From: Obrimoposthia wandeli
Lineage: Eukaryota
DNA length: 64,000 bases
NCBI GenBank assembly: GCA_977020255.1
Contig: CDROCS010001741.1
Span: 62,001 to 126,000 of the forward strand
Reading direction: 5' to 3'
In this document: positions 8,921-31,335 of the stretch, piece after piece
Numbering within the stretch: the first letter of the stretch is position 1
Layout of the letters: each line of letters opens with the position of its first letter
Notes under the pieces: generated by a model
What the model saw: the letters and a program-made list of their open reading frames with translations, nothing else
Told to the model about the DNA's origin: nothing
The model's database searches: none
Translations under genes and position numbers: made by a program

Positions 8921-10960
8921 CCAAAGCCAGATTAATAGTCTCATAGGCCCTAGGCAATTTGAAAACTATTATTGAGTTATTATATTTGATTATTGATTAT
9001 ATTTTATTCGCTAAACAAAGTTTTAACGAATTAAAGAATAGATTCTTGGCTTAAAGGATACTTTTGAAAGTAAATATATTTACTCGTTTATTATTTGTAT
9101 TAAATTATATTCTAAAAAATTTTCGTAAAAAAATCAACCCACAATTGTCGATAGATATAAAAAATGTCATGAATCGGGTCAAAGGAAAGCTACGAGAGAC
9201 GATATGACGAAAAAAGAGAGGATATATACTTTAGTATTTTGAAAAATCAACAACCGATTTTGGAAATAACAATTCAGAATCTTATTCAGAGTCTAATAGC
9301 GACAATCAGGCTTCCAATTAATTTAACTTCGATGCAGAAATCGTGTTTCCAACAGAAAATGCAGCAATCCCATATCCAACTAATGTGCAGATTGTGAATT
9401 TAAATCTAGAAGGCAGCAATTATCCAGCTAAATGGGATTTGAATGCTGAAACTATTAATAATTTTGCCAAAAATCCTCCATCTCAAAATTTGGAGTCAAA
9501 AATTGTTTTAAAAGGCAGTGGATATGGGAAGCATACAAGATACGTCAGGAAGGAATTTTTCATCCAAAAATAAACAAATAGTGAATTAATCAAACGATGC
9601 AGGCTAATGTATTTCTCCTTCGACAGGAAACGTATTTTGTTACGTTTGCAAGCTTTTTAGCACTTCTATTCAATGTAGTAATCAATTTAAAAGGGGATTT
9701 TATGATAGGAAAAATGTTGTCAAAATAAATATCCATGAACAGTCAAAATATCACTTAGATGCTCTTTTAGCAATGGTACAGTGTAGTAAGTTTGTCACAT
9801 TGATAATCAGATTCAAGGAATAAAATAAAAAACATGCAAGTACAGGATTGAAGTTTTGAAAAGAATTATTACTGTAATATAATTTATTATTGCTTTCCGT
9901 GGAGATAATGAGTTGCATTATAACAGAGGTATTGGGAATTTTCTTGGTTGCATTGAACTTGTGGCTGAGTTTGATCCTTTAATCAAAGAACATATTCGTA
10001 AATACGGCAATCATAGAAAAGGAAAAGTTTCTTATCTTTCTTCCACAATTTGCAATGAATTTATTGAAATATTGGACGAGAAAGTATTGCAACAAATAGT
10101 ATATGAAATAAAGGAAGCTAAATATTATGGAGTTAGCATCATTTCTACGCCTGATGCTGAACATACGGATCAGCTGTCATTTATTATACGATACGTAAAT
10201 CAGGATAAAAATGTGGTTGAGCGTTTTCTTAATTTTTTTCCAATTGAACATCATGATGGAAAAAACCTATTTTACATATTACAAAATACGTTGAATCATC
10301 ACAGAATTGATGACAACTGAAGATCACAATCACATGACCGGGATTTATTCTGGCGGACAAGCAAGATTACGACGAGGAAATAAACTAGCTGGATGGGTAC
10401 CATGTTCTGCTCAGAGTCTTAATTTGGTTGGAGTAGCTGCTGCAGAATGCTGTTCAGAGTCGGTTAATATTTTTTGGACTTTAACAATCGGTATACACCG
10501 TTTTTCTACATCGCCACTAACATGGTTAAATTGAAAAAAACATAAGAGATAAAGTTTAGCACTGAAAAGATGGTCAGGACAAAGCGATGCTGTTAAATCA
10601 TTTAATATGAACTATTTTGAAATTTGCCAGACATTACTAGACATTGATAATTGCGTGCATCAACTTCAGACTGTTGCTCATTTGGCAAATGTGTTAGCTA
10701 AAAATTTTGATAATTTTGAAACAGTATTAATTGAGATTTTAGAACAAGAAGTACGATAGAAAATTGTAGAAAAAGGGGTATTGACAAGATTAGTATTAGC
10801 TAACTTACAGAATTTGAAGATTAATGAATTAAGACAGGAGTACGAAGATCGGTGCCTTGAACTTGTAGAAAAATGGACGGGGTTTGTAGATTTAGCAAAA
10901 ACATTAAAATTATGATATAGCGAGACAGGTTTAGACTGAGTTACCACCGATCAAGAGTAA
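8921..10960 (+). mobile_element. Degenerate hAT DNA transposon (ZMYM1-like/DUF4371 transposase)
   Basis: ORF 9913..10320 reads GNFLGCIELVAEFDP..SYLSSTICNEFIE..STPD..HTDQLSFIIRYV..ERFL. ORF 10307..10534 reads NMTGIYSGGQARL..WVPCSAQSLNLVG. hAT-like terminal sequence GCCAGATTAA..GGCCCTAGGCAA at ~8926-8957. Multiple stops; no right TIR found. Confidence 0.85.
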
Positions 10961-12779: not shown

Positions 12780-13420
12780 TATTTGTAGATCAGTGTAATT
12801 TGTTGTTCTGGCGATTTTTATGATTTTATAAGAGTGATTATATAAATGTATTATTTTGGAAAAAACTTGGATCCTCTTTTTATTTACTTCTTTTGTGAAA
12901 TTAGTTTTATTTGATCTCTAAAATACGTATAAATCTTTCTACTACTGCTGCTTTGTACTGCGAAAATATCGAGTAGTGATATATATTATTTTGTTTAAAT
13001 AATGATAGAAATTTATGATTATAAAATTATTTTCCTAAATCAGTTGCACATATTGCGGAATGTCCTTTTTTAATATTTCTTTAATGGCTTCAGCATATCT
13101 ATTAAAGACTTTGCTTTAAATGGAATTGCACAAGCAAACCTGCTAAATACATCAATACATGTAAAATATATCTGTATCCCTCATTAATGGAAGAATATGA
13201 TATCATCTCCATCAAATCCATTTGCCATAACTTGTTAGGACCACTGGTTTTGTATACTCTAGATGGAAACCTTCTTCTCATCGGCTTTGTTCAGACTGTA
13301 GGCTAACTGATCGTTCAGCCATTTATGCGTTTTCTTGTAATTCTGTTTTGTTCTTTTTGCCAATTTTGAATCCCTGGTGTTGCTCATTGGATCTTTTGGA
13401 TTGAACCATATCTTCTCCAT
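12780..13420 (-). pseudogene. Polinton/Maverick retroviral-like (DDE) integrase, frameshifted and 3'-truncated
   Basis: Starts MEKIWFNPKDP..KWLNDQLAYSL, then across frameshifts RRRFPSRVYKTSGPNKLWQMDLMEM..NEGYRYIL.CIDVFSRFACAIP..VQTDLGK..FYNHKF..KAAVVERFIR. This matches the Polinton integrase pattern WQxDL / IDVFS / QTDxG / KAxxVERF. Confidence 0.88.
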
Positions 13421-13506
13421 TATAACAATTTGAACATATAGAAAATTAAAATTTAGGTAAAAAAAGATTAGCACCCATATCTTTAGATGATTTTAAAAAT
13501 AATTGT

Positions 13507-13820
13507 TTATTTCCGTGTCGCAGCTATAATATTACATATAATTGAAGCAATAACTGATATAACAACCCCTATGAAACCGCCATTCTGTTTAAGAATAATT
13601 TTTCATTTCCCTTTTTACTTTTACTGTAGCAATATCTAGAAGATTTTTTCTATATTTTTCCGTTTATCAATTTTTATTCGACCCAAAACTATATTATACA
13701 AAACTTTCAATAAATCATGTACAACAAAATATGGAAATGTTTAAAGAATACTCATTTTTTTAGGAGAAGAAGCTTTGATAAAAGCTTTTAAATATGGTAT
13801 GCTTTTTATACTTTCTTCAT
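13507..13820 (-). pseudogene. Small Polinton protein ending in QNGG followed by a hydrophobic/amphipathic tail
   Basis: Hand translation: ..YLKAFIKASSPKK..VVHDLLKVLYNIVLGRIKID..LKQNGGFIGVVISVIASIICNIIAATRK*. Resembles the small conserved Polinton ORF with an NxLxGxI core and QxGGF tail. Lies between ATPase and integrase. Confidence 0.6.
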
Positions 13821-13935
13821 TTAACTTTCTTTTATTTCAAACTACAGACTTGATTAATTTATTCACTTTTTTTACTGATTATTTTTTTTGTTGATTTCTT
13901 ATGCTTTGTTTTTACTTTACGTTTACGTTTTACTA

Positions 13936-14379
13936 TCAACTTCTTAAAAGGCATTGCAAATTTATTTTTTTATAATTGTTCTCTATTTGTTTATAAACAG
14001 TTACTCCATTAGAATTAAATATGTCTGTTAAAACACGTAAATCATCTGGGCAAGCTTGTGCAAAGACAATAAATATATACCCATTTGCTTGTTTAGCAGC
14101 ATCATGGAATGAATCAACTAAAAAGTTCTTATTTTGGGAAAATGCTTGTCTGGCCACAAAATTTACAACTGTTTGATCTCTAGGATTTTAAAATTTTCCT
14201 TCAATTTGCAAACTTCTGTTTGGGTTAGTCCACTTTCCACTCCTCTACCATGATGCTAAAAATATTTTTGAAACTAGAATCGAAAGAGCTTCATTTTGTA
14301 TCAATTTATAAACGAAATGTGTTTTTCTACTTCCACTGGGGCCAACAATTTGAAATACATCATTATTATTCATTTCCAT
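13936..14379 (-). pseudogene. Polinton packaging ATPase (FtsK/A32-like), internally deleted
   Basis: Degenerate Walker A IVGPSGSRKT at ~14320-14349. C-terminal FKNPRDQTVVNFVARQAF..DSFHDAAKQANGYIFI..PDDLRVLTDIF. The Walker B region is missing. Confidence 0.85.
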
Positions 14380-14415
14380 TACATAAACTCTTTCATTTTA
14401 ATATTGTTTATATTA

Positions 14416-14649
14416 TCATAGAAGTTTCCTTATCGAAAAGTATAATGGCAGAGCTACTGTATATGACAATAAAAAATTAATAAATGAATATTTGGCTATA
14501 ATTTTATTTATTTGTGTTTCATTTCTAAATTCTCGAATAACGTGTGATCTAACCAACATTTCAATGTTATCTCTTGTTATATCATTATTTTTTAATTTTG
14601 ATAAAATTTGTTTACCCTTAATTTTTACAGAAAAACATTTAATCAACAA
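14416..14649 (-). CDS. Small hypothetical ORF in the Polinton cassette
   Basis: 77-aa ORF co-oriented between the TBP-like gene and the ATPase; no motif recognised. Confidence 0.3.
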   Translation of the reverse strand: MLIKCFSVKIKGKQILSKLKNNDITRDNIEMLVRSHVIREFRNETQINKIIAKYSFINFLLSYTVALPLYFSIRKLL

Positions 14650-14784
14650 GTCGATCTACTTCGTTTTTTGTATTTATAGTATTATTCATTTGAAACAATT
14701 ATTCATTTAAATGGGTTTGTTTATAGAAAAAATAACAAAATGTAATAAAATATATATTAAAAAATTAATTCAATAGTGTTTTGA

Positions 14785-15128
14785 TAATCCAAATTTCACA
14801 ATCCCCATATCATAACTTAACCACTAGAAAATATATTTACACATAGCGGTGTAAACTTCAAATATCTGAGTGCAGGAAAAATTTCAGGTTCAAACATGTA
14901 TTCTTTCATTTTCTCCACAATTTTATAAAGATTTATTGGCTTCCCGAGATTACCTGAATCTGTGATTGATTGTATGGCGCAGATTTTAATTCCAAATGGT
15001 AAATTGATCTCATTCATCGGTAGTTTGCATCCCTTAACACGACAACTTCCTGAAATATTCAATATGAAAATAAAATGAAAACTAACTTGAAAAAAAATGA
15101 CAACTGTGAAATCATCAAACATTTGCAC
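14785..15128 (-). pseudogene. TATA-binding protein (TBP)-like gene carried in the Polinton cassette
   Basis: IQSITDSGNLGKPINL..FEPEIFPALRY..VNIFSSG*VMI aligns by eye with TBP repeat 2 (IQNMVGSCDVKFPIRL..YEPELFPGLIY..LIFVSGKVVLTG). ISGSCRVKGCK resembles the end of repeat 1. A premature TAA replaces the conserved Lys codon after SG. No introns. Confidence 0.75.
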
Positions 15129-15134
15129 ATATTG

Positions 15135-15713
15135 TCATGGCTTCCAATCATAGAGGCTAGAGTGGGTATCCTTTTGTATTTCCTTATTGAAATACCACGA
15201 GACTATTCGAACGAGTCCAGCTTGTTCTCTACGATTCATCTTTAATCGAATAGTCTGTGTTGCTCCTAGATCCACCGTGCACGAAAAATCGTTTTTCTGC
15301 AGTCCTAAAACCTTGAGGTCGTTGGTTATTCCCGTTCCTACGAAAATGTTGTCTCTTAGCAAGGACTGAACGCGTTGTAACACTTCGACAGAAACAGGTT
15401 GGTTTCTTAACTTACGTTCGTTGAGGCCCGTTATTCTTGTCACATAATTCCTGATTCTGTCTCTGCTATTGCATTTTGTATCCAACACGATTTGTCCGCT
15501 TTTGTTCATTATAGTAATGTTGGCAAGGGTGGGTTGTTTATTCATTTTTACTACCATTTTACAATCGACAAAAATTATTTGAGGATTGTTGGGGCAAATA
15601 TTCAAATGGCAGACTTGAACGGGACTAGGTCGCACATTTTGTTCTATGAATAATATGTTATGTCTACCTGATAAACGAATCATCAAATCGGGAGTTATTT
15701 GATGTCTCATCAA
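15135..15713 (-). CDS. DEDDh 3'-5' exonuclease of the REX4/ISG20 type; the catalytic Glu appears substituted
   Basis: FVDCKMV (cf. DCEMV), LANITIMNKSGQIVLD, YVTRITGL, IFVGTGITNDLKVLGL, IQKDTHSSLYDW (cf. IQxxxHSSxEDA). Open 192-aa ORF. Confidence 0.85.
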   Translation of the reverse strand: MMRHQITPDLMIRLSGRHNILFIEQNVRPSPVQVCHLNICPNNPQIIFVDCKMVVKMNKQPTLANITIMNKSGQIVLDTKCNSRDRIRNYVTRITGLNERKLRNQPVSVEVLQRVQSLLRDNIFVGTGITNDLKVLGLQKNDFSCTVDLGATQTIRLKMNRREQAGLVRIVSWYFNKEIQKDTHSSLYDWKP

Positions 15714-16126
15714 CCGGTAAGAGTGGTTTTGTAGGAAAAGAACGGAGAAATGCTTGCTTTTTTGTGTTTTAAAAATCCACGGCCTTTTGCTACGTGAATC
15801 TCAATGTCAGTGCATGTAGGCAAGAATTTCATCAACTCAAACAGTCTTTGTTCTGTTGGCTTTTTGCAATTTTTGTTGAGAATTATGCTCTGTCTAGGGT
15901 TGTCTCTTAATTTGATGTTATTTAGAAGCTGGGTCTGATTTTCAAAAATCTTTATTCCGTAATGGTTATGGAAATACCTTGTTCCAAACTGCTTTATTTT
16001 TCCATAAAGGAACTTAGTCATTTTTGCCATTTCTGGACGTTGTTCTGTTAACTGGACTGACTTCTCTCTCTTACTCTGCGGCACAACCTGCCAGTTCAAA
16101 TGAGGATTTGTACTTGTGGGTTCCAT
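15710..16126 (-). CDS. Hypothetical basic protein of the Polinton cassette
   Basis: Open frame (likely start MEPTSTN at 16126). Its TGA overlaps the ATG of the exonuclease gene. No family recognised. Confidence 0.5.
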   Translation of the reverse strand: MEPTSTNPHLNWQVVPQSKREKSVQLTEQRPEMAKMTKFLYGKIKQFGTRYFHNHYGIKIFENQTQLLNNIKLRDNPRQSIILNKNCKKPTEQRLFELMKFLPTCTDIEIHVAKGRGFLKHKKASISPFFSYKTTLTG

Positions 16127-16550: not shown

Positions 16551-16904
16551 CTAATTTTCACACCCGGAATTATTACTTTCTCCCTGTTGAAATCCCATTA
16601 AACGATTAATTACTGATCTCAATGATACAAGAGAGTTTAACGCTTCTTTGAGTCGTCGTACTAATAATTCCTGGTTTGTTTGGCTATGTTCTAATATCTC
16701 AATTGCAACGTCAAAAGCATTATTCATTCGCTCACATTTCATTTCCTTGTCTTTTAAATGCGATCTCAGATTTATATTTTCTATCAATAATTTATTTTCC
16801 CATTTCTTCTGTCTCTTATATCTTCTTCTATTATTTTGTACTATTTTTGAATTTCTCATTTCTAAAATGTTAATAAGTTTTAAGTTCATTTTTACTATTT
16901 TCAA
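16551..16904 (-). CDS. Hypothetical coiled-coil protein
   Basis: 117-aa ORF with a basic cluster (RRRYKRQKK) and heptad-like Leu/Ile spacing; co-oriented upstream of the cassette. Confidence 0.35.
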   Translation of the reverse strand: MKIVKMNLKLINILEMRNSKIVQNNRRRYKRQKKWENKLLIENINLRSHLKDKEMKCERMNNAFDVAIEILEHSQTNQELLVRRLKEALNSLVSLRSVINRLMGFQQGESNNSGCEN

Positions 16905-17049
16905 TTTAAACTAAACACATACGCACTTTCCTTCATCTACATTATAATTACTTTATTTTATGATTAGTTTTTATTTTAGTATGTCAATTCATGTATTTTC
17001 TTGTATGACAATTTTATAAAGATTTTTCTCTTTACTTTTTATTATTCTC

Positions 17050-18240
17050 AATTATTGTATTTATTGATATGTTAGATGAGTTTGAAGAGCTAGGTATGAT
17101 AGATGTTATAAATGGGCCAGGAGGTTCACAATATTTAGTCCGATAATGTTTTTTGAAAATTGTGTTATTTTTTACTTTAATGACTTTCCATGTTATTTTT
17201 ATTATTTATGTAAAGATTTCAATTATTATGATTGTTACAAAAATTTCCTTGTTATTTATATTTTTTTAGTATTTTTGTTTACAAAAGTGTATTTTTAGAC
17301 TTTCATTAAATGATTTATAGGGTATTGTTTCTGTTGTTTTTAATTTTTTGTTAATTTTTGTAATTTCTGTAATATTAATTTGATTTGTAATTTCATAAGT
17401 CTTTGTTGTGAAGGTTGTAGCATGTGGTATTTGTTTTATGGTTGTTTCTTTGATATATTTCCTAATTGTAATTACTGACCAATGGCCACAAAAATCGTAG
17501 GTTGATATAATTTGGATATTTTATTTCCTAAAATCCTTTAGTTTGTTAGATTTCTACAAGTCTCAAATTGTTGTCCCCATTGTCTATACATTATTGGTTT
17601 GTTAGTAATTACACATTCTCTATTATCCATAATTAATTTTTCTGGATATCTTATATTTTTTATAGTTATATTTGTTTTGATTTGTTATTTTTCTAATTGT
17701 TTTTCTGCGTCTTTCCAAAAATGAGCATTATGTCCTCTATATCTAATTCTAATGAAGGCTTTATCTAAGTTATCTATTTTAAGTTGAAATTCTCAATTTA
17801 TCATGATTTGATGTTTTGTTATATAATTTGCTGTCGTCTTTAATATTGAAGCTAAGTATAAATGAGTTTCTATCATTCTTTCATAGAGTGTTATATTCTT
17901 TAAATTCGACTTAACTCTTATTTTGTATTGTGTTTCTGTTCTTAAAAATGGTATTATATAATTTTTTTGAATTAATTTTGTAAATATTTATGATTTGATT
18001 TTTTTCAGATTGGATTATCTGAATTCTTCCTAATTTTCTTGTAAAGAGTGATATTTTAAACTTTATTGATGTGATTTCAGGTATTATTGTAATTAGTCCA
18101 AAATCTTTTATGAGATGTGTTGATGAGTCCTATTTATTTGTTTTGTGTTTTACTATAAATTGATTTTCATTCAGGTTTATTGCGTTTACTTTCATTAGGT
18201 TACTTTTTATTGTAAAATATATTACCAATAACATCATTAT
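17050..18240 (-). pseudogene. Degraded extra ORF downstream of integrase (env position); possible secreted or membrane protein
   Basis: Hand translation: hydrophobic start IMMLLVIYFTIKSNLMKVNA, Cys/Trp-containing segments (RECVITNKPIMYRQWGQQFETC, YDFCGHWSVI), a Thr-rich part and NxT/S sequons. Many stops. Confidence 0.4.
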
Positions 18241-19488
18241 TTTACATTTTTTTTTATTGACATTTTTATTGTATTTCTAGTTTGATGACTCAAAATAGTC
18301 TTGTTTTGTTTTTGTGAGTTTTTTATAGTTAACATTTGTAGAACAGTATTATTGCTAGTTGATCTTAAGTTATATTTGTGACTTTTTACTTTTGTATTTT
18401 CCTCAGGTATTTCTCGACATCTGTTTATATGTGTTCTTATTTCTTTTGATTTTGGTTCATAGTCGAGTTTAGCTGTTATGTTAGTTCCGTTGGTACTAAT
18501 GACTGTATATGGTCCTCTGTATGGTTTTGATAATTTGTGTGACAATCCTACATTAATTTGTGGATTGTAAATCATTACTTTACTTTCGCTTTTTATATTT
18601 GATGGCTTAGTTCTCTATCATAATATTCTTTGTAATTTTCTTGTATGTTTTTTACAAATAATTTAGCTTTTTCGAATGCTAGTTTTATTCTTTCTTTAAT
18701 TTCTATTTTATATTCAGGTATTTCTAGGTACTGTGTAGTAGGTTGTAGTAATGTTAGGTCAATAGGCATTTGAGGATCTCTAAGGAACATAAGGTAAAAA
18801 GATGTTTCTCCTGTAGATGCATGTACTGATGTTCTATATGCAAAAAGGCATGGAGGTATATGTAAATCCCAATCTGTTTGGTTGTTGTTTGTGTATGATG
18901 CCATTATATCTTCGAGGGTTCTATTAAATCGTTCTACTAATCTGTCGGTTTGAGGGTGATATGGTGTCGTATTGATCTTTTTTATGTGAAAAATTTCAGC
19001 TATTGACGCTAATACATTATTTATAAATTCAGGACCTTTGTTGGTTAATAATTTTTGGGGTGCACCGAAAGTAAAAATAATTTTTTCGACTAAAACCTTC
19101 GTATTGGTTTCAGCCTTATGACCATGTGTTGGAAAAGCCTTTGGCCATCTTGTAAAATAATCAGAAAATACTAATATATATATCGATTTCCTCGGGGTGT
19201 TTCAGGTAATGGTCCCATTACATCCATGGCAACAGTTTCCATGGGGGCTGATGGATAAGGTATTGGTTTTAAAGGTATTTTTGTGGTACGTAAAGTATTT
19301 TTCCGTTTAAGACATATTTCACATGTATTGCACCAATTTTTTACATCTTCTTTCATATCAATCCAATAATATTTTAAGTTTAATCTCGAATGTGTTTTTT
19401 TAGTTGAAAGATGTCCTCCTAAAGCTCCGTTATGATATTGAAGGAGTAATTGACATTGTATTTCTTTAGGAATAACTAGTGAGTACAT
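18237..19488 (-). pseudogene. pol: Gypsy integrase (HHCC, DDE core, GPY)
   Basis: YHNGALGGHL..YYWIDM..CNTCEIC; VAMDVMGPLPET; TTPYHPQTD.LVERFNRTL (hand-read between the track ORFs); WDLHIP..FAYRTSVHASTG; KLSKPYRGPY. Confidence 0.95.
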
Positions 19489-19530: not shown

Positions 19531-20960
19531 CTAACGAGATTCATGAAATTTCAAATGTTTTCTTAATTTTTCATCTGTTGGAACTTGATTGATAGTTATG
19601 TACTTAATTATTTGTTGTATTTCAGTATCTTTGCTTTGAAGATCGGTGATTACTTTTTCATCATATTTTGCTTTAATTATTGTGAAAAGATTTAATTCAG
19701 TATCATCTAAAGTCATTGTGTTTATGTCTTCTTTTATTCGAGATAGACAATCTGCGTTAGTGTTTGATTTACCTTTTCTATATTTTATCTCAATATCATA
19801 TTTTTGAAGAATTAACACCCATCTCATTAATCTAGATGTTGTATCTTTATGATTTAGTAGCCACTGTAAGGGTCTTTGATCGGTATAAACGTAAACCTTT
19901 CGGCCTAATAAGTAATGTTTAAAATGTTCTATAGAAAAACAAATAGCTAGGCATTCTCTTTCTATAGTTGAATAATTTATTTCGTGTTTTTTAAGACCTC
20001 TGTTTGCGTAAGCTATCAGATGATCTTTTTCGTTATTATCTTGTTGTCCTAGTACTGCTCCTAACGCGTATACACTTGCGTCAGTCATTACCAAAAATGA
20101 ATTGTTAAAATTAGGATATCTAAGTATAGGTTTTTCAATTAATTTTTGTTTTAAGTATTCGTATGACTCTTGTTGTTCTGTTTCCCATTCAAATTTTTCA
20201 TCCTTTTTAATAAGTTTATTTAACGGTGTCACTATTTGTGCAAAGTTTCTGATAAATCTACAATAATATCCTGCGAGTCTCAGAAATTCTTGTATATTTT
20301 TACTGTTTTTGGGATCGGAAATTTTTAATTTTTTTCTATATTACTCTCGTATGTTTGAATTACTTTTGCAGACACTGCGTGACCTAGATAATTTACCTTG
20401 TCTTTCATCCATTCACACGTTTTAGGCTTTAATTTTAAACCTGCTATTTTTAATCTACGGAATACGTTTTCTAAGTCTTTTAAATGTTCCTCAAATTTTT
20501 TTGAAAAAATACCATGACGTGATCGGCATCCATTAAAATGTGACTCATGCATATCTGAAATGTTGTGGGAGCACATGTTAAGCCAAAATGTAATACATTA
20601 AATTCATATAATCCTTCTCCTGTTGAGAATGCTGTTTTCTCTTTATCAGATTCTTTTATCTCTATTTGCCAATATCTACTCTGTATATCTATTGTTGTAA
20701 ATATTTTTGCATTTTTTAGTTTATCTAAGATTTCATCGATTCTTGGAAGTGGATAAGTGTCTTTATGTGTAACCTCGTTTAATTTTCTGTAATTCACACA
20801 AAATTTTAATGAATCATCTTTCTTTTTTACTAAAACAACCTACGGAATACGATAAAGTCGTTGTTTAATCGTTCTGCTAGCAGTTAGAGGAAGGTTATGT
20901 TTTATTAAATCCGTTCGTCCAAGGTCATATTCATTTTTAGCAAAAATTACATCGTATTTT
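19531..20960 (-). pseudogene. pol: Gypsy reverse transcriptase and RNase H; the YxDD motif is deleted
   Basis: YRKLNEVTHKDTYPLPRIDE, YWQI..DKEKTAFST..GLYEFNVLHFGL, YLGH. RNase H: TDASVYALGAVL..NYSTIERECLA..YTDQRPL..RWVLILQ..ADCLSR. The sequence jumps from VMV to FSKKFEEH near 20510. Confidence 0.95.
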
Positions 20961-21330: not shown

Positions 21331-21685
21331 TTAAGTGTTTGATCTGTAAATATCTCTAATTTGATTTTTCTCAAAGTCAAAATGAAAATTGCTTCCTATT
21401 TTCCTTAATGTATCTATACCAATAATCATCTGGCAATGACAATTTTTCATAATTCTGGGTGGTATTTTAATAAATTTATCTCCTATTTTAAAAATGCAAT
21501 CTAATTTACCAATAATATTTATGGGTTGACCGTTTGCTGCTGTTACTTGACTATTATCTCTGAGAAGTAGTAATCTTTGGTCTGGTTTTAAGAAAGACTC
21601 GTCCAAGACTGTAACGCTTGATTCTGTGTCAATTAAAGCTTTTAATTTGTACTCATTTATTTCAACTTTTACATAAGGTCTTCTA
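21331..21685 (-). pseudogene. pol: Gypsy aspartic protease (DTG>DTE), in the same open ORF as the env transmembrane region
   Basis: RPYVKVEINEYKLKALIDTESSVTVL..VTAANGQPINIIG..MIIGIDTL within ORF 21331..22074. Confidence 0.92.
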
Positions 21686-21879
21686 TCATTATCTCTTTGA
21701 TTTATTGTATATATTGTTGGTGCAGTTGATTTTTGAATTATTTTTTCCTCTTTATAATTTGCTAAATCGGGATATTGTGCAGATTCTGTATTATCTTTAT
21801 TTTTATTGTCTACTAGTTTTTGTAAATTTATTTCTCGCATTTCCTTCGATAATGCATTTACTGTATTTTGATGATGGTT

Positions 21880-23216
21880 AAATATAAGAAATTTTGTCAA
21901 AAATGGAAAACATCCCAAAATTAGTTTCCATGTCAATCCACCAACTTTATAAATATAATATGTAGATAAAATTTGACTCAAAAGAATCTTAAAGCATATT
22001 AGTAGCGTGTATATTCCTACAAGTCCAGAAAATGCTTGACCGAAAATTAAAACTTTTCCCCATATTTTTGACATTGTATTTTTAGTAACTTTTATAAAAT
22101 GATTTGGAGAAACTAATAAATCGTAATCAGGACTGCTAATTCCGTCTGGTACTGATTTTTCAATAATTTGCGTTAAAATTCGTGATCTAATTTGAGGAAA
22201 TAAAATGAATTTTATTAATTTATCTATGTCTTCTTGTATGTGTGGTTGTTGTTTTTTTTGTTGGTGTGGTTTTTGCGTTATATATTTTTTCCTTACTTAA
22301 ATATATTCCTTTATAGTTTTTTGTATAAATAGAGTGTTCACATCGGGATTCCTCTTTCTTTTTAATAAATCGCATTCCAGAACCTTGTTTAGTTGACATA
22401 AAAATAGTTGGAGTTGATGTTTTTTGAATTTTTCTTGTCCTATATTTTTGATGTATATCTTTTGGAACTCTTTGATCAAGTTCTGGGTCATCTTTAAATC
22501 TTTGACCTTGAATTATTTGAAAACTTTCAGATTTAAGGAGTATTAATTTGCATTGCTCTGTTTTTACCTTATAATATAAAATTGAGGATCCTGTATTGCA
22601 ATGAACTATATTTGCTTCGCATAGTTACCATATTATTTGTAGAGGGATCAAATGTTGCTTTAAACGTCCATAGTTCTACTTCAAAGTTTTTTATCACTAC
22701 TAAGCCACTTTGTTTGACTCCCATCACGATGTATGTACCTGTTGTACATGCACCGTCAGATTTTATTGTTCCTATTACTGTAATTATTTGTTGTATTATT
22801 TTATTTTTTACTGCTCGTACTTTAATTTCTCTATCTATTCTTAGTTCTCCCGTTGCAAAAGCATCCTTAAAATTTAGTGCATCAACAATTACTGGTATTT
22901 TTCCCAATGCAGGTTTGACAATCGAGTTATGGCTGTGTTGTCCGCAATATGTTATGAATGTTTCTACATGTACCCTACACTCGAAAACTTCGGTGTTTAT
23001 AAAATCTGTTTCCTGATATACGTGGAATAACTTAGTGGTTTTAACTTTTACTTTATTTGGGTCTGCGTGGGCGCATTGTTGTAGATCCATTAAGGAGTAT
23101 TTATTTTGGATACTATATTTTGAGCAATCATATGTTTCAAGAGCATTTATAGGTTTTAATATATTCATAATTATACATATTGTAAATATTAATTGAATTA
23201 ATTTCCATAGTTTTTG
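21880..23216 (-). pseudogene. env: Envelope glycoprotein resembling chuvirus/Jingchuvirales class III (gB-like) fusion protein; internally deleted
   Basis: Signal-like segment then LETYDC..YSL..C..VYQ..VFECRV..TYCGQHSH.S.V..TGEL..GACTTG (ORF 22569..23168). Middle frame ..IFMSTK..RCEHSIYTKNYKGIYLS. Then QEDIDKLIKFILFP and KIWGKVLIFGQAFSGLVGIYTLLICFKILL..GLTWKLIL. The motif order matches my recollection of chuvirus-type glycoproteins. Confidence 0.8.
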
Positions 23217-24671
23217 TTAGAACAGTATGTCTTTTTTATAGTTTTTATTTTTCGATTTTTTGGTGACTCGCTTTCTATTTTTAATTTTTGACTCTGTGTT
23301 TTGTGTTTGAGTATTTTGGTTAATTTTTATATTTGTGTGTTTTAATGTCAGGCAACCATTTCTAAACATGTCTCCAAATTCTGATTGTGCGTTTGAACTA
23401 TTTGTATTTTGTTCATTATTTTGATATTGTTGTTGTGTTTGTTTGTAACGTTTATCTATTTCTTGTTGTCTTAATCTCAATAATGAGACTTCTTCAGTTT
23501 TCTGGGTTATATCAGTGTTTTCTATAGTATGTATTGGTTTCTGTAAGCATATTGTTGATTTTGATTGTTAAATTGCACTGATTTTTGGATTTGTGGTTGT
23601 TGTTGTTTTATTGAGGTGTTACCAAATTGTTTCATTACTGTTTTTAGTTTACCACATTCGTCAGTGTTGTGGTTTTTCATATTACATATTTTACAAAATT
23701 TTGTATTAGCATTAAAATATTTAGCTTGATTATTCTGATTATTGAAATTGTTATATAGACTTCTGAAATTATTATTTGGATTATTGAAATTATAATTTTG
23801 TGGTCTTACATTATTATTTTGTCTATATAACAATTTTCGACAAGTTTCAATGTTATGATTATCTTTTTTACAAAATCTACAAAATTTATTGTTTGTTATT
23901 TTTCGGCAATTTTCTATTGTGTGATTTTGCAGTCCACAATTTGTGCATTTCTGGAAAGGTCTTTGTGTAAATTGTGAGTCTGTATAGTTTCTGTTTGTTT
24001 GATTTCTATAAAAGTTATTTGTCAGTGGTCTATATTGTTGTTGGTTATGGTAATTAAATTGTGTGTTTGGGTTAAAGTTTTCGGTATGGTTGTTATTTGG
24101 TGGTGTTGATGGTCGTTGTATTTTTTTCAAAAGTTAGCGCTGAAACTTCTGTTTGTTGCAACATATTTAAGCTGGTTTCTACAAGTTGAGCTTTATTTAT
24201 AGCTTGTTGAAGCTTTTCTACTTCTAGTAGTGCTGGGTGATTTTTGATTTTATCGTTTAGTCCATATAGGAACTGATGTAGTAGTAAGCGTTCTCTTAAA
24301 GCTTCTTCAATTCCGGGAAATGATTTTAAGGCTAATCTTCGTAATTCAACTGCAAAGATATTTGTGGGTTCTCCCATATGTTGCCCACGTTACCTAAATT
24401 GGTTAAAGTAATTTTGTTCTGACTGTGCTCCTAAAATCATATTTTGAAAATTCTGAACCAAATGGTCCCATGTGTCTTTTTGTTCATTAGTTAATCCTTT
24501 ATAAATTGTTAAAGCAGTGCCTTTTAAATATGCTGGAAAAATCCTAAGTTTCTCTGCATTAGTCCACTCAAATGCCTGAGCAAATGAATCAAACCTATTC
24601 ATAAATTCGGGTAGTGAAGATTTAACGCCATTGAAAGCGTTTAATGGAAAATTTAACTTATGTGCAGCCAT
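23217..24671 (-). pseudogene. gag: Gypsy gag (capsid-like domain, Asn/Gln-rich nucleocapsid with three CCHC knuckles, basic tail); frameshifted
   Basis: FNG..PEFMNRFDSFAQAFEWTNAEKLRIFPAYLKGTA..W..L; R.Q..GEP..FAVELRRLA..QFLYGL; CTNCGLQNHTIENC, CRFCKKDNHNIETC and CKICNMKNHNTDEC (Cx2Cx4Hx4C). Confidence 0.9.
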
Positions 24672-24738
24672 TATTTGAGGTTGGTCGATTATTTGTTTGT
24701 TGTTTATCTGTATAATAGGTGGTTCTGGTCATAAGGAA

Positions 24739-24939
24739 TGTGTGGGGCAGAACGGCTACTTGCGCGGTAAAAGCATGGATGCACTGTTGCATATAGACAT
24801 GGGACATCTACGCGAAGTAGTATGGCGCAAGATCGCTATGAATCTCAATCAGGCGGAGCAAGATGAAAGCTTCAATTGCTGGCAAAATAAAAAATAAACC
24901 TGACACAAGCTGTTAATCCGACTTCAGTTCTGGTCAACA
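24739..24939. repeat. Candidate LTR-like segment (TG...CA) just upstream of gag
   Basis: About 200-bp GC-enriched block bounded by TGTGTGGGG and CAACA, 68 bp from the gag ATG. No second copy and no canonical TGG PBS found. Confidence 0.3.
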
Positions 24940-27840
24940 TACCAGGCCTACCTGAGATTTATCTGGGAGCTTGACCCTGACTAATGTAAACATTAGCGCA
25001 TAATGAGCTAACATTAATAATTTGTATGCACTTTAAAGTACTTCAAACACATAATCAATTGCCCCGGATGGGCTTAACTAACCACATTCCTCTATCAACC
25101 ATCGTAAACATCACATTTATTAATTATCATCAGATTATTTCGCATATTTTAAGTGACCTAAAATCATTTGAATTGGTCAATAAAACCATTTATGCAATTA
25201 TTAGCGCTTTATGATGATTATGCACACGTATGTGATTGGTGATTTGTATCGTTTTTAAATAGCTATGCTTTAAATCAAGTGTGAAATTTGTAGTAAGTCA
25301 ATGTTATGGATATTATATTATTTAACAACTTGTAACATAATGCACATTCACAATATTTTATTTTCTATAAAACAACTCTTTATAAAATATTTCGGCACAA
25401 TTTCGATTAATATTAAAATAATTATTTTTACGAAACATTCGGCACATACAGCATAAAATACTTATTTAATTAAGGAGTTCATTTAACAAATTGCAGTCCA
25501 GCAAAATCAAAAAGAAGTTTTATTAGGCAATGTATATATTGATGTACACGTAAATATAAATTGTAAGTAAATATGAATCATATATATGTTATCGTTTACG
25601 AATTTTTGCATTCTAAACAAATTTAGAGATAATTAACCAGGATAATTACCCTTATAAGTCAATTATGTGAAAAATAGGGTGATATAAAGGAATTCCACTA
25701 ATATCTAACTACTTAACATGAATAAAATATTAAAAAAATAGAATTTAGATTGCTTAACGAAAAAAATGAGAAATTTTAAATCTATACGGAGTCACTTAAA
25801 GAAAAACATTTTAAAACTAAAATCTAAGACTGGTTGAAATTACAAGGTTTAGAATGACATGAATATTATCAAGAGTTACTATTGTTTCTACAAGATGGAG
25901 CCGTTATGTCAGAAGTGTTTTGGATTCCATATTTGAACAAAGATGGATTGGATTAAAATGGAAAAATACATTCTCAGAACATTTTGTTATGGAGAACTGT
26001 CAAATAGATGACATTCAACCAAGAAAATCATACATTTAATGATTTGATAAGTACAATAAAGAAATATACTAAGAAACAGAAATATGTGAAAACGTTATCA
26101 ATAACTTTGGGAATAGCAATGTATTACTGTTGAAGATATTCATCTTTAATAAATATGATTTCCCGTTTTCTGCATATTTTTATTTAAAAACTTAAAGAAA
26201 AACTAAAATTCTGTATTGAAATAAAGTTATTAATCTTTAAGTGACTGACCCTGTATAATAAATTAAAATCAGTCAACCCTAGAATAGTTCGTTACTTGAA
26301 AAGCTATTTTATTAGATGACAAAAACATTGTCAAATTATTTGTTATAAATCAAATTTTTTTCTTTTTTCTCATTCATGTTTCAAACGCATTTTTTATTTT
26401 GTTAAATTTTAGTTTAAACAAGTTTTCTTTCTGATTAAGTCACTGATTGCTCATCCTCATAAAAAATTAAATCATACAAATTATAAGTACATTATAAAGA
26501 ATATTCATGATTTTTCTTTATCAATAATTATTAATCAACATTTTTTAAATTTATTATTGAAAGCTAACTGAAAATCATTATTAGTAGGTAGATGTGGCAC
26601 TACCCACGCCACTAACAGCATCAACCCTGGGCAACTTCGCAACAGAGATATCTGAAGTAGGCATAACAATTCCCACCCATTTCTGTTTAAAATACTTTTC
26701 AAATGTAATTAATATAAAATATTCCAGTCTGTCCATTAAATAAATTACAACATATTAAAATAAGTCATAATTTTTGATAATTTAATCTGCATCAGCTGAA
26801 CTGACAAGATTCGATATTAGACAATAGCTAGAGATCTTCCGCATTAAAGGCAGGTGAATATGGTGCCACTGCTTCTGTTGTCTCTGACGAACTATCTGAG
26901 TCAGATTTTTTTGTGGTGAATGTAAACTTTCTGTATCTGAAGTTAATGTTAGGTTTAGGTGTTCTGAGAGTGAGGAAGTCTGTGTAAGTAAATCGTTATT
27001 TGTTGCAAAACTGATTTGTGATTTGGGTCTTTGAATCGTTTTCTCACTGGAGTCTGTCCTAACTAATCTTGTTTGAATTCGTCTCCAGTGAAGGCTAGCG
27101 CTACGTTTTTGTTTATTTATTTTGTGTGTGTTTTTATGATAGTTTTTTTTGGGTTTGTGTTGTCAGTAATTTATTTAAAGTTTCAAAAAAATTATTGTGA
27201 CAAATGAAAAATGCGCAATGCGTACTGAAACTAAAAATATTTCGGTGATATTCGTAAAAGTTATTTGGTCAATCTCAAAATCAAGTTCTCTTAATAATAT
27301 CAAAACACGTTCTCTGAAAATCTCTGGAGAAAATTTATCTATCCGAAGTTTTATTTGATTTTATGTTGTTTTTAAGTTAGAGTAAAATATCAAGACTCAA
27401 ACATTTCTCTCAAAATTTCCAATTTTTGATCAGTTTTATATTTATCCAAAAATATATATAATTCTTTCAACTTTTATTATCTTTTTAGTTTTTTATTTTA
27501 CTATTGCGTCTCTAATAGATAAATCCACTCCAATTTATAATTTTCAAAAACGAATCTTTATTGGTAAACCAGTTCAAAGGAAAATGTTAAAATCTATCTC
27601 AAAATTTATTGTATTTGAGTTGTGCTTCGTTTATTGATTACTTTTTAATATTTTCGTCAGTGTTCAAAACTCTATCCGACAACAGCCAGTGTTTAGCCTT
27701 TATGTGAACAGAACTCCGAAAACTGATAAATTATTTTTCTATTAATTTTACAATTAAATTGACATACACAACTCAAATTGTAAAAGAAGATTAGAGATAG
27801 GAACTCGACTATGTTTCAGAAAACAAAAATTATGTTTAAT

Positions 27841-27948: not shown

Positions 27949-28478
27949 AATACACAAAATAAAATAAAATTAAAATGCAAAATATGTTAAATTTGTAAAC
28001 TATTAATTTATCAAAATATAGGGTTTAGTCAAAAACAAATTAAAATATTAGAAATATAAAGCACCTTATGCGTAACTTAATTATAATTTGTAAAATTGAA
28101 AATCCTCAATTAAATTAGCCAAAATCTTTAAATTACTAAAAAATAATATATATATACATATACATATATTATTCAACTTTAATCTGTCCAAGCTTGACAC
28201 TCACAAAAATTCAAAATATGTATTTGTAAGTCAATTAAAATTAATAAAGCAAAACTATCTTACAAATTCAAAATATTCAATTGTAACTCAATTAAAATCA
28301 AGAAATAATAATTATCCAAATCAACCCAAAGCACAGTAATTTTCGAAAGTTATCACCCTTCAGATCAAAAATCCCAACTACTAAAAAAAAAAAAAAACGA
28401 CCTGAATCTGTTCGGAGGTCGGGCTCACCAAATTGTTAAGGATGTCCAAATTGTACAAAATTAAAAGATCCACGATGG

Positions 28479-28650
28479 GGATAAATCAAATATCAAATTT
28501 AAACTGCTGTCTAATATATTTTTACAATTGCAATGGATAAATCAAATCTAAACGCTGTCCAATATATTTTTACAATTGCAATGGATAAATCAAATTTAAA
28601 CTGCTGTCCAATATATTTTACAATTGCAATGGATAAATCAAATCTAAAAA
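28479..28650. repeat. Tandem repeat, ~48-bp unit x ~3.4
   Basis: GGATAAATCAAAT(C/T)TAAAC(T)GCTGTC(C/T)AATATATTTTTACAATTGCAAT repeated; gives the MDKSNL repeats in ORF 28533..28754. Confidence 0.9.
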
Positions 28651-28749
28651 GTAAAAATATTATTAATCACATCCATAAAATAGTTAAGCTATTTAAAGCA
28701 AAACTCCTTCTTCTCTTTTATGATCTCTCTCACATACACACAAAACCAT

Positions 28750-29380
28750 ATTGATCCGAACATTCGGCCGACAATGTGTGCGCTTCTGTCGCAAGTCTGC
28801 AGTCTTTTAAGGGCAGCCACAGTCGAGGGAGAACAACCGAGCTAACGCTCGAGGATCCGCAGGAGACAGCGAGATCACTTGATGACTGCAAATGTCACAT
28901 GGAAAGAAATCCGGGCAGTTTGATCCGACGTTACGGGATACTTTCAGTGGCAGGGAGTTAGAGAGGGATGGAAGAGGAGTGGGCATTAGAGAGGTGGCCG
29001 ATGCTGCTGTCCGAAATGTCATATGCGACGGTCCGCTCTGCAGCCTCAGCGCATGGATGATGGAGGAGAATGACAAATGTGATCCGTGAAGGTAGGCAGA
29101 CGCTACCAGTTGGATCCGGGTAGTTCCAGAGCGGTTAGGCAACTGATCAGGTCTAGGGCTGCCCGAGAGAGAGAAAAAGAGAGATAGAAAGAGACCGCTG
29201 CTACTGGGTGGTAAATCTTTTGCAGTCAAAACCGCTTTACTTTTTTTGTCAGATTTATCTATGACATTTTGCCATCTCCCTGATGAGGCCAAGGCAGGCC
29301 GAAACGGGTTTATCCCGTCGGAGGTTGTTTTAGAAAAATACCTCCCTGATTGTGGGCACCTCAGCAAAAATGTCAATTTT
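28750..29380 (+). mobile_element. Probable Penelope-like element (or retrozyme) 3' remnant
   Basis: GC-rich island in AT-rich DNA ending in a hammerhead ribozyme. Broken frames only weakly resemble a GIY-YIG C-terminus (..GE..R..R..DH..W; ..GRRYQLDP). Confidence 0.45.
29274..29325 (+). ncRNA. Type I hammerhead ribozyme
   Basis: ATCTCC-CTGATGA-GGCC(AAGGCA)GGCC-GAAA-CGGG(TTTAT)CCCG-TC^GGAGGT. Complete core, 4-bp stem II, stem III, 6-bp stem I (one G-U pair) and a GUC cleavage triplet at 29317-29319. Confidence 0.92.
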
Positions 29381-31335
29381 AATTGATATAATTTTAATTT
29401 ATTTCAAAACCCAATTTTAATTGATATAATTTAATTTATTTAAAAACCCAACATATGTATGAAGAAGTGAAACAATATTTCAAATACAAAGTCAGATTCT
29501 TGAAGAAGCCTCAACTGATTGCTCTAGTAAATTCTGTGACAACTGAAAGAAGAAAGTTCAGCTATTATCTATCAAATATTCAAAAACCAGATTTTCAATA
29601 TCTTAAACAGAAAGTATAAAAGGCAGTTCCAATAAATTATGTTTTACTGATGAAGATTGTGAGGCAAAAGAAACATATCCCTTCTTGGGTCACAAATATT
29701 AGAAAAAGGCTTCTTAATGCTGACTAGAGTGGAGATGTGAAGAAAATACGACTAAAACGAAAAAGTAGACCGAAAGAAAGTGTCAATGTTGGATTTTCTA
29801 AAAATATAGCTGATAATAGAGCGTCATTATGGCGTGGGACCAGAATGAGTTGGCACTGCTCTCTAACAGTCGATAATATTTTAGATCTCATCCGTGAGAT
29901 CGTCTGCACATATTGACCAAACTGTTCAACTATTAAAATGGCTTATTTAGTGCAATTATTTTTCAATTTCCTAAGCTTGTTAGAAATATGACTTCTAACC
30001 ATGAAATTCCATAATTTTATTTCAATATTCTGCGAAAATATGAAGTTCTTAGCAATATGATTTCTAGCTTTAAATAACAATTTTAACCCAGGTTTTGTCA
30101 CAGTTTTCATCACCTAAGACTTATTACAATGTCAAATATTTATTCTGTTTTGAAAAACTCCCAATGAATTTTTTAGAGTAACTTTTCAGATCAATCTAGG
30201 ATTCTGTTGGGGCTTGGAAAAAGGAACTATGCATCAATACATTACTTCTGGATTTTATTTTTAATTCTTCGTTGTTTTTTATATTATAGCTACCTTTAAA
30301 TAATAGATCAATGTATTAAATGGCCATATTATTTATTTCCTTTATTTCCACGAAGCCATAATATAAAAATTAACAAAACACGATGCAACAAAGTAAATGG
30401 AAAACTTACGGTTGAAAGCTACTAAAATCTTACTAAATTTGACACTAAAATTAGTTGTAGATATACAATATTTCACAATTTATTGCATGATAATTAATTA
30501 ATATTATTATTATGATTTTTACATATATCAACTAGTTTTGTCAAAAAATGTACCTTTTTTAGTTTTGCAGATATCTTATCTGGTTAAATTTCTATTATTA
30601 AATATAAATAATGGTTACTATATTAGGCAATATTAAATAATGGTTTAATACGGATAGAAGGCTAGCACTGGATTATTTTTTACACGTGTAACTTTATTCA
30701 AGAAAATTAAACTAGAAATAAATTGTCAATTTCAAAAACTAATTGTGATGTGTTTCTTGTTAAATTGCACCTAAAGTTCGAGTTGATTTTTGTGTCGAGT
30801 CATATATTACAATAAAAGTCCATTGAGTAAGAGATTGTAGTAGTAATATCGTAAATAATTGCAGTTAAAGTTGTAAAGTGTAGAAATGAGTATTGCTCTG
30901 CACGTCGCAGATCTGCGTATTTGTATTACAAAAACAATTTCCTATGGGAAGAAAGTCGGAGGTAAGCAGACAGGACGGGGAACGAAAGGAAGGGATAGTC
31001 AAACATTGACATATGCTCCGTTGATAGGAATAGAGGGGAGATGGGAGGAATATTGTGGACAGTTGGCGACTGCTGGCAGGGGAAAAGGTTGTGTGTGCAT
31101 TTGTGGGAGGGCGAGGACGCCAATGACCGGGTCTCGAGTTTGTAAATACAGCCTGTCAAACGTAAACAAGGCCAATATTTACCCGGGCTTGTTTATGGGT
31201 CTGAATTGGAGAAAATTGGGTGTCGAGTGGAGGAAGACGGCTGCCCGGATGGATGGTGGGAGAAGACAAGTTGGGCAGGGTTGCCGCAGAAGGGTACACA
31301 TAAGGTTTTGTGTGATTGACATTGTTTGAAGTTGT

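Follow-up and report, generated by a model that had tools for sequence, protein, structure and literature searches.

Introduction

The planarian Burro elements, reported in 2019 (Arkhipova and Yushenova, PMC6431247), have an env gene that follows gag and precedes pol in the same reading frame, and GAG-ENV-POL elements with a gB/chuvirus-type env are described from nematodes, bryozoans and flatworms by Chary and Hayashi (eLife 2026, PMC13524379). The window, the whole 64,000-nucleotide stretch of Obrimoposthia wandeli DNA that was analysed, contains an element spanning approximately 29453-15153 on the minus strand. The best explanation as a whole, which is judged probable, is that this is an older, decayed copy, with its 3' end missing, of an env-bearing Ty3/gypsy family of the errantivirus-like, GAG-ENV-POL type that is young and present in very high numbers. 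The preliminary description of this locus covered positions 21331..24671, which lie within the element and cover only part of it, and stated that no description of its layout was known; this statement does not hold because the gag-env-pol layout is already published, and on layout alone the element is another member of a described group.

Among the described elements, Smed_errantivirus_1-6 of the Platyhelminthes (PMC13524379) resemble the present element in belonging to Ty3/gypsy, in the order GAG-ENV-POL, in a gB/chuvirus-type env and in being multicopy, with up to 215 copies. The features of the GAG-ENV-POL HSV/gB-type group of Chary and Hayashi, a gypsy pol and, separating it from gag, an env of the gB/chuvirus type, are present here. 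The domain I-II rows of the Smed envs are colinear by eye with the env of the element and have short motifs, VYQE and GMRFIKK among them, in common with it, and the identity to Smed_1 is approximately 35-40% by a by-eye hand count with no alignment score; the likeness to the Platyhelminthes C1a group is likewise a by-eye colinearity with the supplement rows, without alignment score or tree. That paper lists neither an LTR nor a primer-binding site (PBS) for the Smed elements, whereas both are clear here, and its main text does not state the in-frame fusion, a second membrane protein after the integrase (protein X) or 3' ORFs, all of which are present here. Because four of the listed Smed spans, less two 3-kb flanks, leave 8.5-8.9 kb, the Smed elements may carry an unannotated X-like tail.

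Burro/GYPSM1 likewise encodes one polyprotein in which env sits in frame, preceded by gag and followed by the protease, and its gag, which bears two or three CCHC knuckles, and its accessory ORFs are comparable (PMC6431247). However, Burro exceeds 30 kb and has a 4,873-aa ORF with BIR, BCL2, MATH, ankyrin and dUTPase domains, whereas the element is 14.7 kb long with none of those Pfam domains; for the Burro env, homology to gypsy Env (baculovirus/paramyxovirus-related) is reported, whereas that of the element is assigned to class III; and only the element has X after the integrase. The non-canonical nematode ERVs (Sacco et al. 2022, cited in PMC13524379), likened here by title and citation, are also metaviruses with an RNA-virus glycoprotein before pol. 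In Anakin (Dezordi et al. 2020, 2023), a chuvirus-type glycoprotein has likewise been captured by an LTR element, but on a BEL/Pao backbone, whereas the present element has a Ty3-like RT, an H2C2 integrase and no BEL/Pao Pfam match; Anakin-type chuvirus glycoproteins also adjoin gypsy pol (PMC13524379). The Juno/Vesta elements of bdelloid rotifers (Rodriguez et al. 2017, PMC5408684) are gypsy-like and carry 3' ORFs for a DEDD exonuclease, a coiled coil and a TM protein, as here, but their exonucleases are RNase D-like DEDDy, whereas that of the element aligns to ISG20/SDN1, has a His in the last motif and lies beside a class III env. In the canonical ICTV errantivirus, env is the third gene, downstream of the integrase, whereas the fusogen of the element lies between gag and protease. 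In the literature searched, no gypsy element is described as carrying a second membrane protein fused downstream of its integrase, and no class III env as accompanied by an ISG20-type exonuclease.

Results

Family, boundaries and pol

A motif search reveals at least 1,423 gag segments in the genome and no match in a reversed control; chance origin is excluded by these 1,423 matches and by the similarity of env to PF24664 (E 2e-91). The element has a full length of 14,660 bp in a copy with paired 1,092-bp LTRs that are 99.8% alike, and 10 LTR pairs spaced 13.2-13.8 kb apart are present among 40 scored matches. A 4-bp target-site duplication (TSD) flanks the C50 copy, and a TSD is also present in four of nine further LTR pairs, the other five being without a resolved LTR end. 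The family has transposed recently.

The window copy has no 3' LTR. Its 5' LTR (28434..29453, minus strand, as are all features below unless stated), read from the sequence, measures 1,020 bp, has the form TG...CA and is approximately 68% like the LTR of the paired-LTR copy over the first ~220 nt. The PBS (28418..28430), 1-3 nt past the LTR end, is tRNA-Trp-like, its reverse complement differing from a Trp_CCA 3' end (PMC13524379 supplement 1) at one of 12 positions, and a related PBS reproduces a longer tRNA-like stretch. A candidate host tRNA-Trp gene proved to be another PBS, and no host tRNA gene was found. A canonical polypurine tract is not seen before the 3' LTR in either of two copies, where a C-run and a short purine-rich hexamer stand instead of an A/G tract of ~10 nt. 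A target preference for a Maverick-like repeat, hinted at by the window and C50 copies, is ruled out, as such flanks occur in none of nine further copies (flanks of 400-570 nt, the downstream one resolved in six of the nine). A TBP-like ORF at 14817-15134 belongs to the flanking repeat and is ruled out as part of the element.

The aspartic protease (PR; 21388..21687; PF09668, PF13975 and PF00077) is in frame with the env anchor, and its active-site motif, altered in the window copy, has the canonical form in the young copy inspected. Reverse transcriptase and RNase H (RT-RH; 19798..20839; RVT_1 E 2e-20, RT_RNaseH E 3e-37) are broken in the window, and the integrase (IN; 18330..19473) is recognized by Pfam profiles for its H2C2, rve and C-terminal regions. 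The best PDB match of RT-RH is Ty3 RT (E 1e-95), followed by a match at 2e-58, foamy virus at 5e-37 and HIV at ~1e-11, and this similarity ranking, which is not a tree, supports the assignment to Ty3/gypsy. The order PR-RT-RH-IN in a 2,429-aa ORF of a sister copy is that of the Metaviridae. The criteria for this family include paired LTRs around an internal region of 3 to >15 kb (PMC7879559); paired LTRs, the pol order, a Ty3-like RT, a tRNA PBS after the 5' LTR and TSDs are all found in the present family.

A single frame from gag to X

The window copy carries stops and frameshifts, a deletion of ~540 nt in env at 22256/22241, a deletion of ~88 nt at 20840 and a 2.1-kb insertion (26865-24729), and because of this damage the single frame is not readable from the window alone. 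The insertion (24730..26864, no strand assigned) is present only in the window copy, where it separates the gag extension from the gag ATG; it is absent from copies aligning across that point and has no full-length match elsewhere among 40 scored matches. In one sister copy, gag, the class III fusogen, PR, RT, RH and IN are contained in the single 2,429-aa ATG ORF, and in three of ten copies, which were chosen for long open frames, one frame extends from upstream of gag through the integrase. The path from the env anchor to PR is stop-free in 25 of 29 top-scoring copies, and 109 of 124 scored matches have no internal stop, both sets being biased to intact copies; more than 100 copies have the same env-PR junction. 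One frame encodes gag, the class III fusogen, PR, RT, RH and IN, followed by the membrane protein X. Since no examined copy keeps the whole stretch open between the gag start and the X terminus, the full length is pieced together from overlapping natural frames. Shared stops at two sites in 4 of 10 copies suggested a gag-env boundary with a programmed stop or read-through, which is rejected as the main form because, among the first 100 matches listed in each case, stops at these two linker codons occur in 6 (299 matches in all) and in 2 (1,423 in all).

Gag is preceded by an AUG-less N-terminal extension (26865..27162), basic and of ~105-118 codons in young copies, which is stop-free in the gag frame in all six copies inspected; between two leader types it exhibits 52% aa identity, a dN of 0.39 and a dS of 1.1-1.3. 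In the window, gag starts at ATG 24671, and its capsid region (24096..24671), broken by a stop and frameshifts, resembles PF03732 (Retrotrans_gag) below the cut-off (E 3e-4; E 2e-3 in the 2,429-aa sister ORF). Three CX2CX4HX4C zinc knuckles mark the nucleocapsid (23654..23947). This is followed by a basic linker and an internal signal/anchor 1 (23142..23567), in which a K/R-rich stretch (23567-23220) precedes a hydrophobic signal that ends at 23142. The hydropathy peak of signal/anchor 1 is 1.7-1.9 in three sister ORFs and 1.95 in a distant relative, P0001 (2,627 aa), and a cleavage site is predicted at this position.

The env glycoprotein

The env ectodomain (22060..23141, with the ~540-nt deletion in the window copy) is recognized as a class III fusogen of the chuvirus/gB type by PF24664 and the ESM Atlas. 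The window env matches PF24664 (Monjiviricetes_fusion) at profile positions 5-200 (E 1.5e-27) and 481-636 (E 6e-20), and the second match and the aspartic protease occupy one stop-free frame; the env of the 2,429-aa sister ORF matches the same profile with E 2e-91. The best Atlas matches (0.95-0.96) are Monjiviricetes fusion clusters, followed by rhabdovirus G, gB and gp64 sets, with a recognition score of 1718, which is under the Atlas mark of 2300. An AlphaFold model of env from the single sequence reaches a pLDDT of 31.5, and because this fold model failed, the class III assignment rests on profile and language-model evidence; a PDB sequence search with env gives a sole match at E 1.4. This evidence supports the view that the glycoprotein encoded between gag and PR, in the same frame as both, is of class III and chuvirus type. 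No furin motif is found in env. The membrane anchor (21880..22059) comprises two hydrophobic segments by hydropathy, and the topology proposed below requires one of the two not to be membrane-spanning.

Searches for env homologues return sparse results, with single matches each, one of 105 candidates among metagenome contigs and none in viral contigs. Env shares 23% identity with the free chuvirus-like G (PF24664 E 2e-208) carried by one metagenome contig. In P0001, env is 41% identical over a full-length ectodomain, and the order of domains matches that of the element, including a second signal and a TM segment after the integrase.

Much of the preliminary description is borne out by these results: profile and motif matches agree with its minus-strand order of gag with three zinc knuckles, linker, signal, glycoprotein, TM, PR, RT, RH and IN; its Ty3/gypsy assignment accords with the best PDB match; and its chuvirus-type class III glycoprotein between gag and PR is supported by the profile and Atlas matches. 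The single ORF that it proposed is recovered from the sister copies, not from the broken window copy, and both a one-ORF copy and nearly identical paired LTRs, which it had suggested seeking, are found. The AUG-less gag extension, protein X and the 3' ORFs, including the exonuclease, were absent from it.

Protein X and the 3' ORFs

Protein X (17032..18260) consists of a second signal/anchor, an ectodomain with a possible FN3/Ig-like sandwich, a TM segment and a short tail, and lies in the integrase frame in most young copies. Two versions of X, with 26-68% aa identity by segment, are present on a backbone that is 95-100% identical; the window carries version B, which is 91-92% identical in nucleotides to L036/L037. 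No homologue of X is found among 1.84 billion representatives, no Pfam match reaches threshold (fn3 E 0.26), no match to env families is found for this post-IN protein, and BLAST detects no similarity to the P0001 tail. The X model contains seven strands at residues 43-117 with a pLDDT of ~42-52. Its best Foldseek match has E 3e-3, with many FN3 rows and none at E <= 0.001; the best VIA match is a poxvirus IFN-gamma-binding protein entry (Z 8.6, rmsd 2.2, 76 aligned), with others at Z 6-7.6; and the Atlas places X at 0.84-0.86 to FN3 clusters. These models weakly suggest an FN3/Ig-like ectodomain.

Two ORFs, one coiled-coil-like and one for a DEDD exonuclease, lie between X and the 3' LTR. The first (16551..16859; ~100 aa) is present in both downstream copies fetched, with 93% aa identity and a dN/dS of 0.24, and its Pfam matches are all sub-threshold. 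The second (15153..16126; ~365 aa) encodes an ISG20/SDN1-like DEDD 3'-5' exonuclease (PF00929 E 5e-9), whose PDB matches are ISG20 and SDN1 (E 6e-5). Aligned to ISG20, motifs ExoI-III contain the four acidic catalytic residues and the His, which predicts a nuclease; they are intact in both young copies, whereas the window copy is frameshifted and truncated with one catalytic residue altered. Of 112 exonuclease matches in the genome, 83 are stop-free. An acceptor-like CAG immediately before the ATG suggests that the exonuclease may be expressed from a spliced mRNA.

Discussion

A membrane-threaded polyprotein agrees with the hydropathy of the frame. In such a mechanism, a polyprotein of ~2,800-2,900 aa would be threaded through the ER membrane: the cytosolic Gag would end in signal/anchor 1, where signal peptidase would free the luminal fusogen; the env anchor would bring the chain back to the cytosol, where PR would release RT-RH and IN; and signal/anchor 2 would direct X to the lumen, with the final TM segment anchoring it. 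Gag would remain tethered to the membrane, so that capsids would bud with the fusogen and X at 1:1 stoichiometry, and the particles could enter neighbouring or stem/germ cells. X may serve in attachment or as an immune decoy, and the exonuclease, made from spliced RNA, might trim element RNA or host small RNAs. The joint reading put forward here, tentatively and as one possibility, is an enveloped metavirus with two-glycoprotein entry, in which a conserved class III fusogen and protein X, distinct from it, rapidly changing, FN3/Ig-like and acting in attachment or as a decoy, would both be cut from one four-crossing polyprotein with the capsid and enzymes cytosolic, the ISG20/SDN1-like nuclease would counter small-RNA (piRNA) defence, and the two X versions would reflect receptor- or immunity-driven cassette swaps.

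The same anatomy could also belong to an element that is no longer infectious and replicates intracellularly, env and X persisting only because polyprotein processing needs them to anchor it in the membrane or as spacers, or because they serve cell-cell fusion. Intracellular transposition spreads an element without need of an envelope, env lacks a detectable furin motif, and because an in-frame stop in env kills pol, pol alone would keep the env frame open; additionally, the dN/dS of the env ectodomain (0.05-0.27) exceeds that of RT (0-0.05). However, env is under purifying selection, and a dN/dS of 0.05 where dS is 0.5-0.6 indicates amino-acid constraint beyond an open frame. P0001 retains the full-length ectodomain at 41% identity, and a conserved cysteine architecture is reported across such envs in PMC13524379, which leaves the loss of infectivity rather unlikely.

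The polyprotein with a fused X also has to be weighed against a four-ORF provirus in which X is translated on its own as ORF3, through splicing or frameshifting, and the polyprotein is only gag-env-pol. X bears its own signal sequence, and although 64 of 97 X matches lie in frames of more than 500 aa, 22 share a frame of ~453 aa (451-454) separated from the integrase; two of the ten copies fetched are shifted near the IN-X junction. Both shifts, however, are single-base indels in A-runs, and the junction is in frame in the other eight copies, with both X versions. In short-read contigs, which stem from four runs on a single sample and are perhaps not independent of the assembly, single-base losses at the junction are a minority, at ~1-22% of depth, with no insertion among the rows listed. 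P0001 is also fused, and a separate X appears improbable.

That a chuvirus endogenous element landed by chance in an otherwise ordinary gag-pol gypsy copy, as might be suspected from the fragmented window copy and from the chuvirus glycoprotein EVEs often found among gypsy fragments without true capture (PMC10084718), is refuted by the env-PR junction common to more than 100 copies, the gag-env-pol ORF of 2,429 aa, the purifying selection on env and the same layout in P0001. The later, unrelated insertion that the preliminary description had considered is likewise not seen, and the in-frame junction and purifying selection support env as an old, selected part of the element.

The added value of the element lies in its fuller anatomy, with X after the integrase and an ISG20-type exonuclease. 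Herpesviruses and paramyxoviruses split binding and fusion between two proteins, as would an LTR retrotransposon should X prove to act in attachment. The more than 1,400 copies in this single genome, with X in two versions, constitute a natural data set on infectivity, on Gag:Pol control in one-ORF elements and on the small-RNA counter-defences of retroelements.

Organization of the window copy

The Ty3/gypsy element lies on the minus strand of the window at approximately 29453-15153, where six-frame translation and a Pfam scan bear out the order gag-env-PR-RT-RH-IN given in the preliminary description. The gag remnant starts at the ATG at 24671; downstream of it, the six-frame translation shows three CX2CX4HX4C knuckles, then a linker of basic character and then a hydrophobic signal. 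Env is recognized as two matches to PF24664 (Monjiviricetes_fusion), at profile positions 5-200 (E = 1.5e-27) and 481-636 (E = 6e-20). The second match shares one stop-free frame with the aspartic protease, 3' of which the scan places RT, RNase H and integrase. This decayed copy is approximately 83-92% identical to ten sister copies, which were picked for long frames, and comparison with them reveals a 2.1-kb insertion (26865-24729), a deletion of approximately 540 nt in env and one of approximately 88 nt ahead of RT; relative to one of the sister copies, the count of frameshifting indels is 14. The 5' LTR occupies 29453-28434 (minus strand), and the 3' end is missing from 15153, where the surrounding repeat resumes.

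This abundant repeat (12830-15152 and 29454-29604, minus strand), in which the element is embedded, carries a TBP-like ORF (PF00352, E = 5e-7), a P-loop-like ORF and an integrase-like remnant, and we read it as Maverick/Polinton-like. One other element copy is inserted in this same repeat, approximately 190 bp away, and none of nine further copies is so placed. Elsewhere in the window, two approximately 90% alike copies with DNA_pol_B_2 and Endonuclease_7 matches (34-1525 and 57628-59012) are probably fragments of Maverick-type polymerases, a DUF4371 match (9883-10320, plus strand, E = 2e-5) is presumably the remnant of a hAT-type transposase, and adjoining tandem arrays with units of 31-42 nt and 35 nt occupy 37691-38719.

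Sister copies and recent activity

The env-anchor/protease frame has 124 scored matches in the 1.35-Gb genome, the best candidates out of 24,668, and 109 of these best candidates are stop-free inside; a 30-nt motif at the end of gag has 1,423 genome matches, versus none with a reversed control. A single frame extends from upstream of gag through integrase in three of the ten long-frame copies, one of which has a 2,429-aa ATG-initiated ORF matching Retrotrans_gag, PF24664 (E = 2e-91), protease, RVT_1, RNase H, H2C2 and rve. One copy is 14,660 bp long and has TG...CA ends; its 1,092-bp LTRs are 99.8% alike, its PBS is Trp-like, and a target duplication of 4 bp flanks it. Among 40 scored hits, ten pairs of LTRs lie 13.2-13.8 kb from each other; four of nine further pairs have a 4-bp target duplication, which was not resolved in the other five. 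Young copies diverge by 0.6-3.4% across a 3.9-kb env-pol stretch.

The LTRs are far more variable than the coding core. The young LTR type holds an 86-nt tandem unit (L042:1369-1707), and over its initial 220-270 nt or so it resembles the other types at only approximately 68-77%. In a related element (L048), the PBS reproduces an extended tRNA-like 3' stretch as far as the CCA end, and we take its identity past the last 12 nt to be Trp. The RT-RH region ranks Ty3 first by similarity among solved structures, in agreement with the original Ty3/gypsy assignment; Metaviridae family criteria were taken from PMC7879559.

Gag extension and env

All six copies examined here have, upstream of the gag ATG, a reading frame of 105-118 codons that lacks both stops and an AUG, and the 2.1-kb insertion of the window copy sits within it. 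This extension is probably coding, because identity between its two leader types is 52%, at a dN of 0.39 and a dS of 1.1-1.3. Within small sub-lineages (L035:2646-2648, L039, L036:869-871 and L037:2365-2367), copies share an in-frame stop in the gag-env interval. It occurs at either of two sites, in 6 of 100 listed matches at one and 2 of 100 at the other; such copies are possibly gag-only and mobilised in trans.

The proposed chuvirus-like class III glycoprotein is likewise supported, by the PF24664 match and by Atlas, where env scores 0.95-0.96 with Monjiviricetes fusion clusters, followed by rhabdovirus G, herpes gB and gp64 sets, at a recognition score of 1718, below the 2300 mark. Single-sequence structure prediction gave no usable fold for env, whose putative class III assignment is based on profile and language-model evidence. 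Env is 23% identical to a free-standing chuvirus-like glycoprotein encoded by a metagenome contig (L044); that glycoprotein is followed by 401-aa and 197-aa ORFs (L044:196-4484), a gene order typical of chuviruses. The distant relative P0001 (2,627 aa) has 41% identity across 98% of env and an identical domain order. Its database entry is a hypothetical protein assigned to a bacterial MAG, and it is most likely animal DNA in that bin. Env is under purifying selection, with pairwise dN/dS among few copies of 0.05-0.27 in the ectodomain and 0-0.03 in the anchor and tail.

Protein X and the 3' accessory ORFs

In frame past integrase, the element encodes a second membrane protein (X) with a signal-like segment, an ectodomain of approximately 310 aa, a TM segment and a short tail. 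Frames longer than 500 aa contain 64 of 97 X matches, and a frame of approximately 453 aa is common to 22. No homologue of X was found among 1.84 billion representatives. Four weak lines suggest that X may begin with an FN3/Ig-like sandwich: Atlas (0.84-0.86), Pfam (E = 0.26), a seven-stranded model (pLDDT approximately 42-52) and fold searches (Foldseek best E = 3e-3; VIA Z = 8.6, rmsd 2.2 over 76 residues). Two X versions are 26-68% identical by segment, with the remaining polyprotein 95-100% identical. P0001 likewise has a second signal and TM after integrase, and BLAST detects no similarity between its tail and X.

Ahead of the 3' LTR are a coiled-coil-like ORF of approximately 100 aa and an ORF of approximately 365 aa with an ISG20/SDN1-like exonuclease, whose catalytic motifs are intact in 2 of 2 young copies. 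The exonuclease matches lack a stop in 83 of 112 cases, the ORF has a dN/dS of 0.12-0.25, and on at least eight contigs the match lies 5-6.5 kb from an env/protease match. In one copy (G000:C1258:27813-33689), the 5' leader and the 3' accessory ORFs are merely 3 kb or so apart, which suggests an internally deleted derivative retaining the exonuclease region.

Discussion

The preliminary description was partly supported, its anatomy being right and its claim of an undescribed layout wrong: in PMC13524379, GAG-ENV-POL gypsy elements with a gB-type env are reported from nematodes, bryozoans and flatworms. Six Schmidtea families, of up to 215 copies, are among them, and the Schmidtea env rows shown there look, as judged by eye, colinear with the env described here, so the host is probably planarian-like. 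PMC13524379 also cites Sacco et al. 2022 for nematodes. ORF3s of rotifer LTR elements are reported to encode a DEDDy exonuclease, coiled-coil or TM segments (PMC5408684), and in arthropods no clear case of a chuvirus glycoprotein captured by gypsy elements was reported (PMC10084718). A literature search, with most subscription journals, Repbase and figures outside its reach, revealed no element of this type described as encoding either a second, FN3-like membrane protein or a nuclease of the ISG20 type. The GAG-ENV-POL layout is of a known kind, to which this family adds protein X, the exonuclease and the extended gag as apparently undescribed features.

In an element with this order, frame and set of hydrophobic segments, which has transposed recently and evolved under purifying selection, we infer that the polyprotein would be threaded through the ER. 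Cytosolic Gag would end in an anchor, the fusogen would become luminal once signal peptidase cleaves, PR would release cytosolic enzymes and X would be luminal; this topology would require just one of the two post-ectodomain hydrophobic segments to span the membrane. Gag, env, pol and X would be produced 1:1, and capsids would bud through a membrane bearing both glycoproteins.

That the element is non-infectious and retains env for processing appears improbable. Even less credible is X as a separate ORF: the IN-X junction is in frame in eight of ten copies, the shifts in the two exceptions examined are single-base indels within runs of A, and single-base losses near the junction are a minority in short-read contigs from one sample. 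A chance EVE insertion as the origin of env is refuted.

X may be an attachment factor or a decoy, and the exonuclease may act in RNA trimming or against small RNAs. Tentatively, and with considerable doubt, the family would represent an enveloped metavirus that carries two glycoproteins and a nuclease directed against small-RNA defence.
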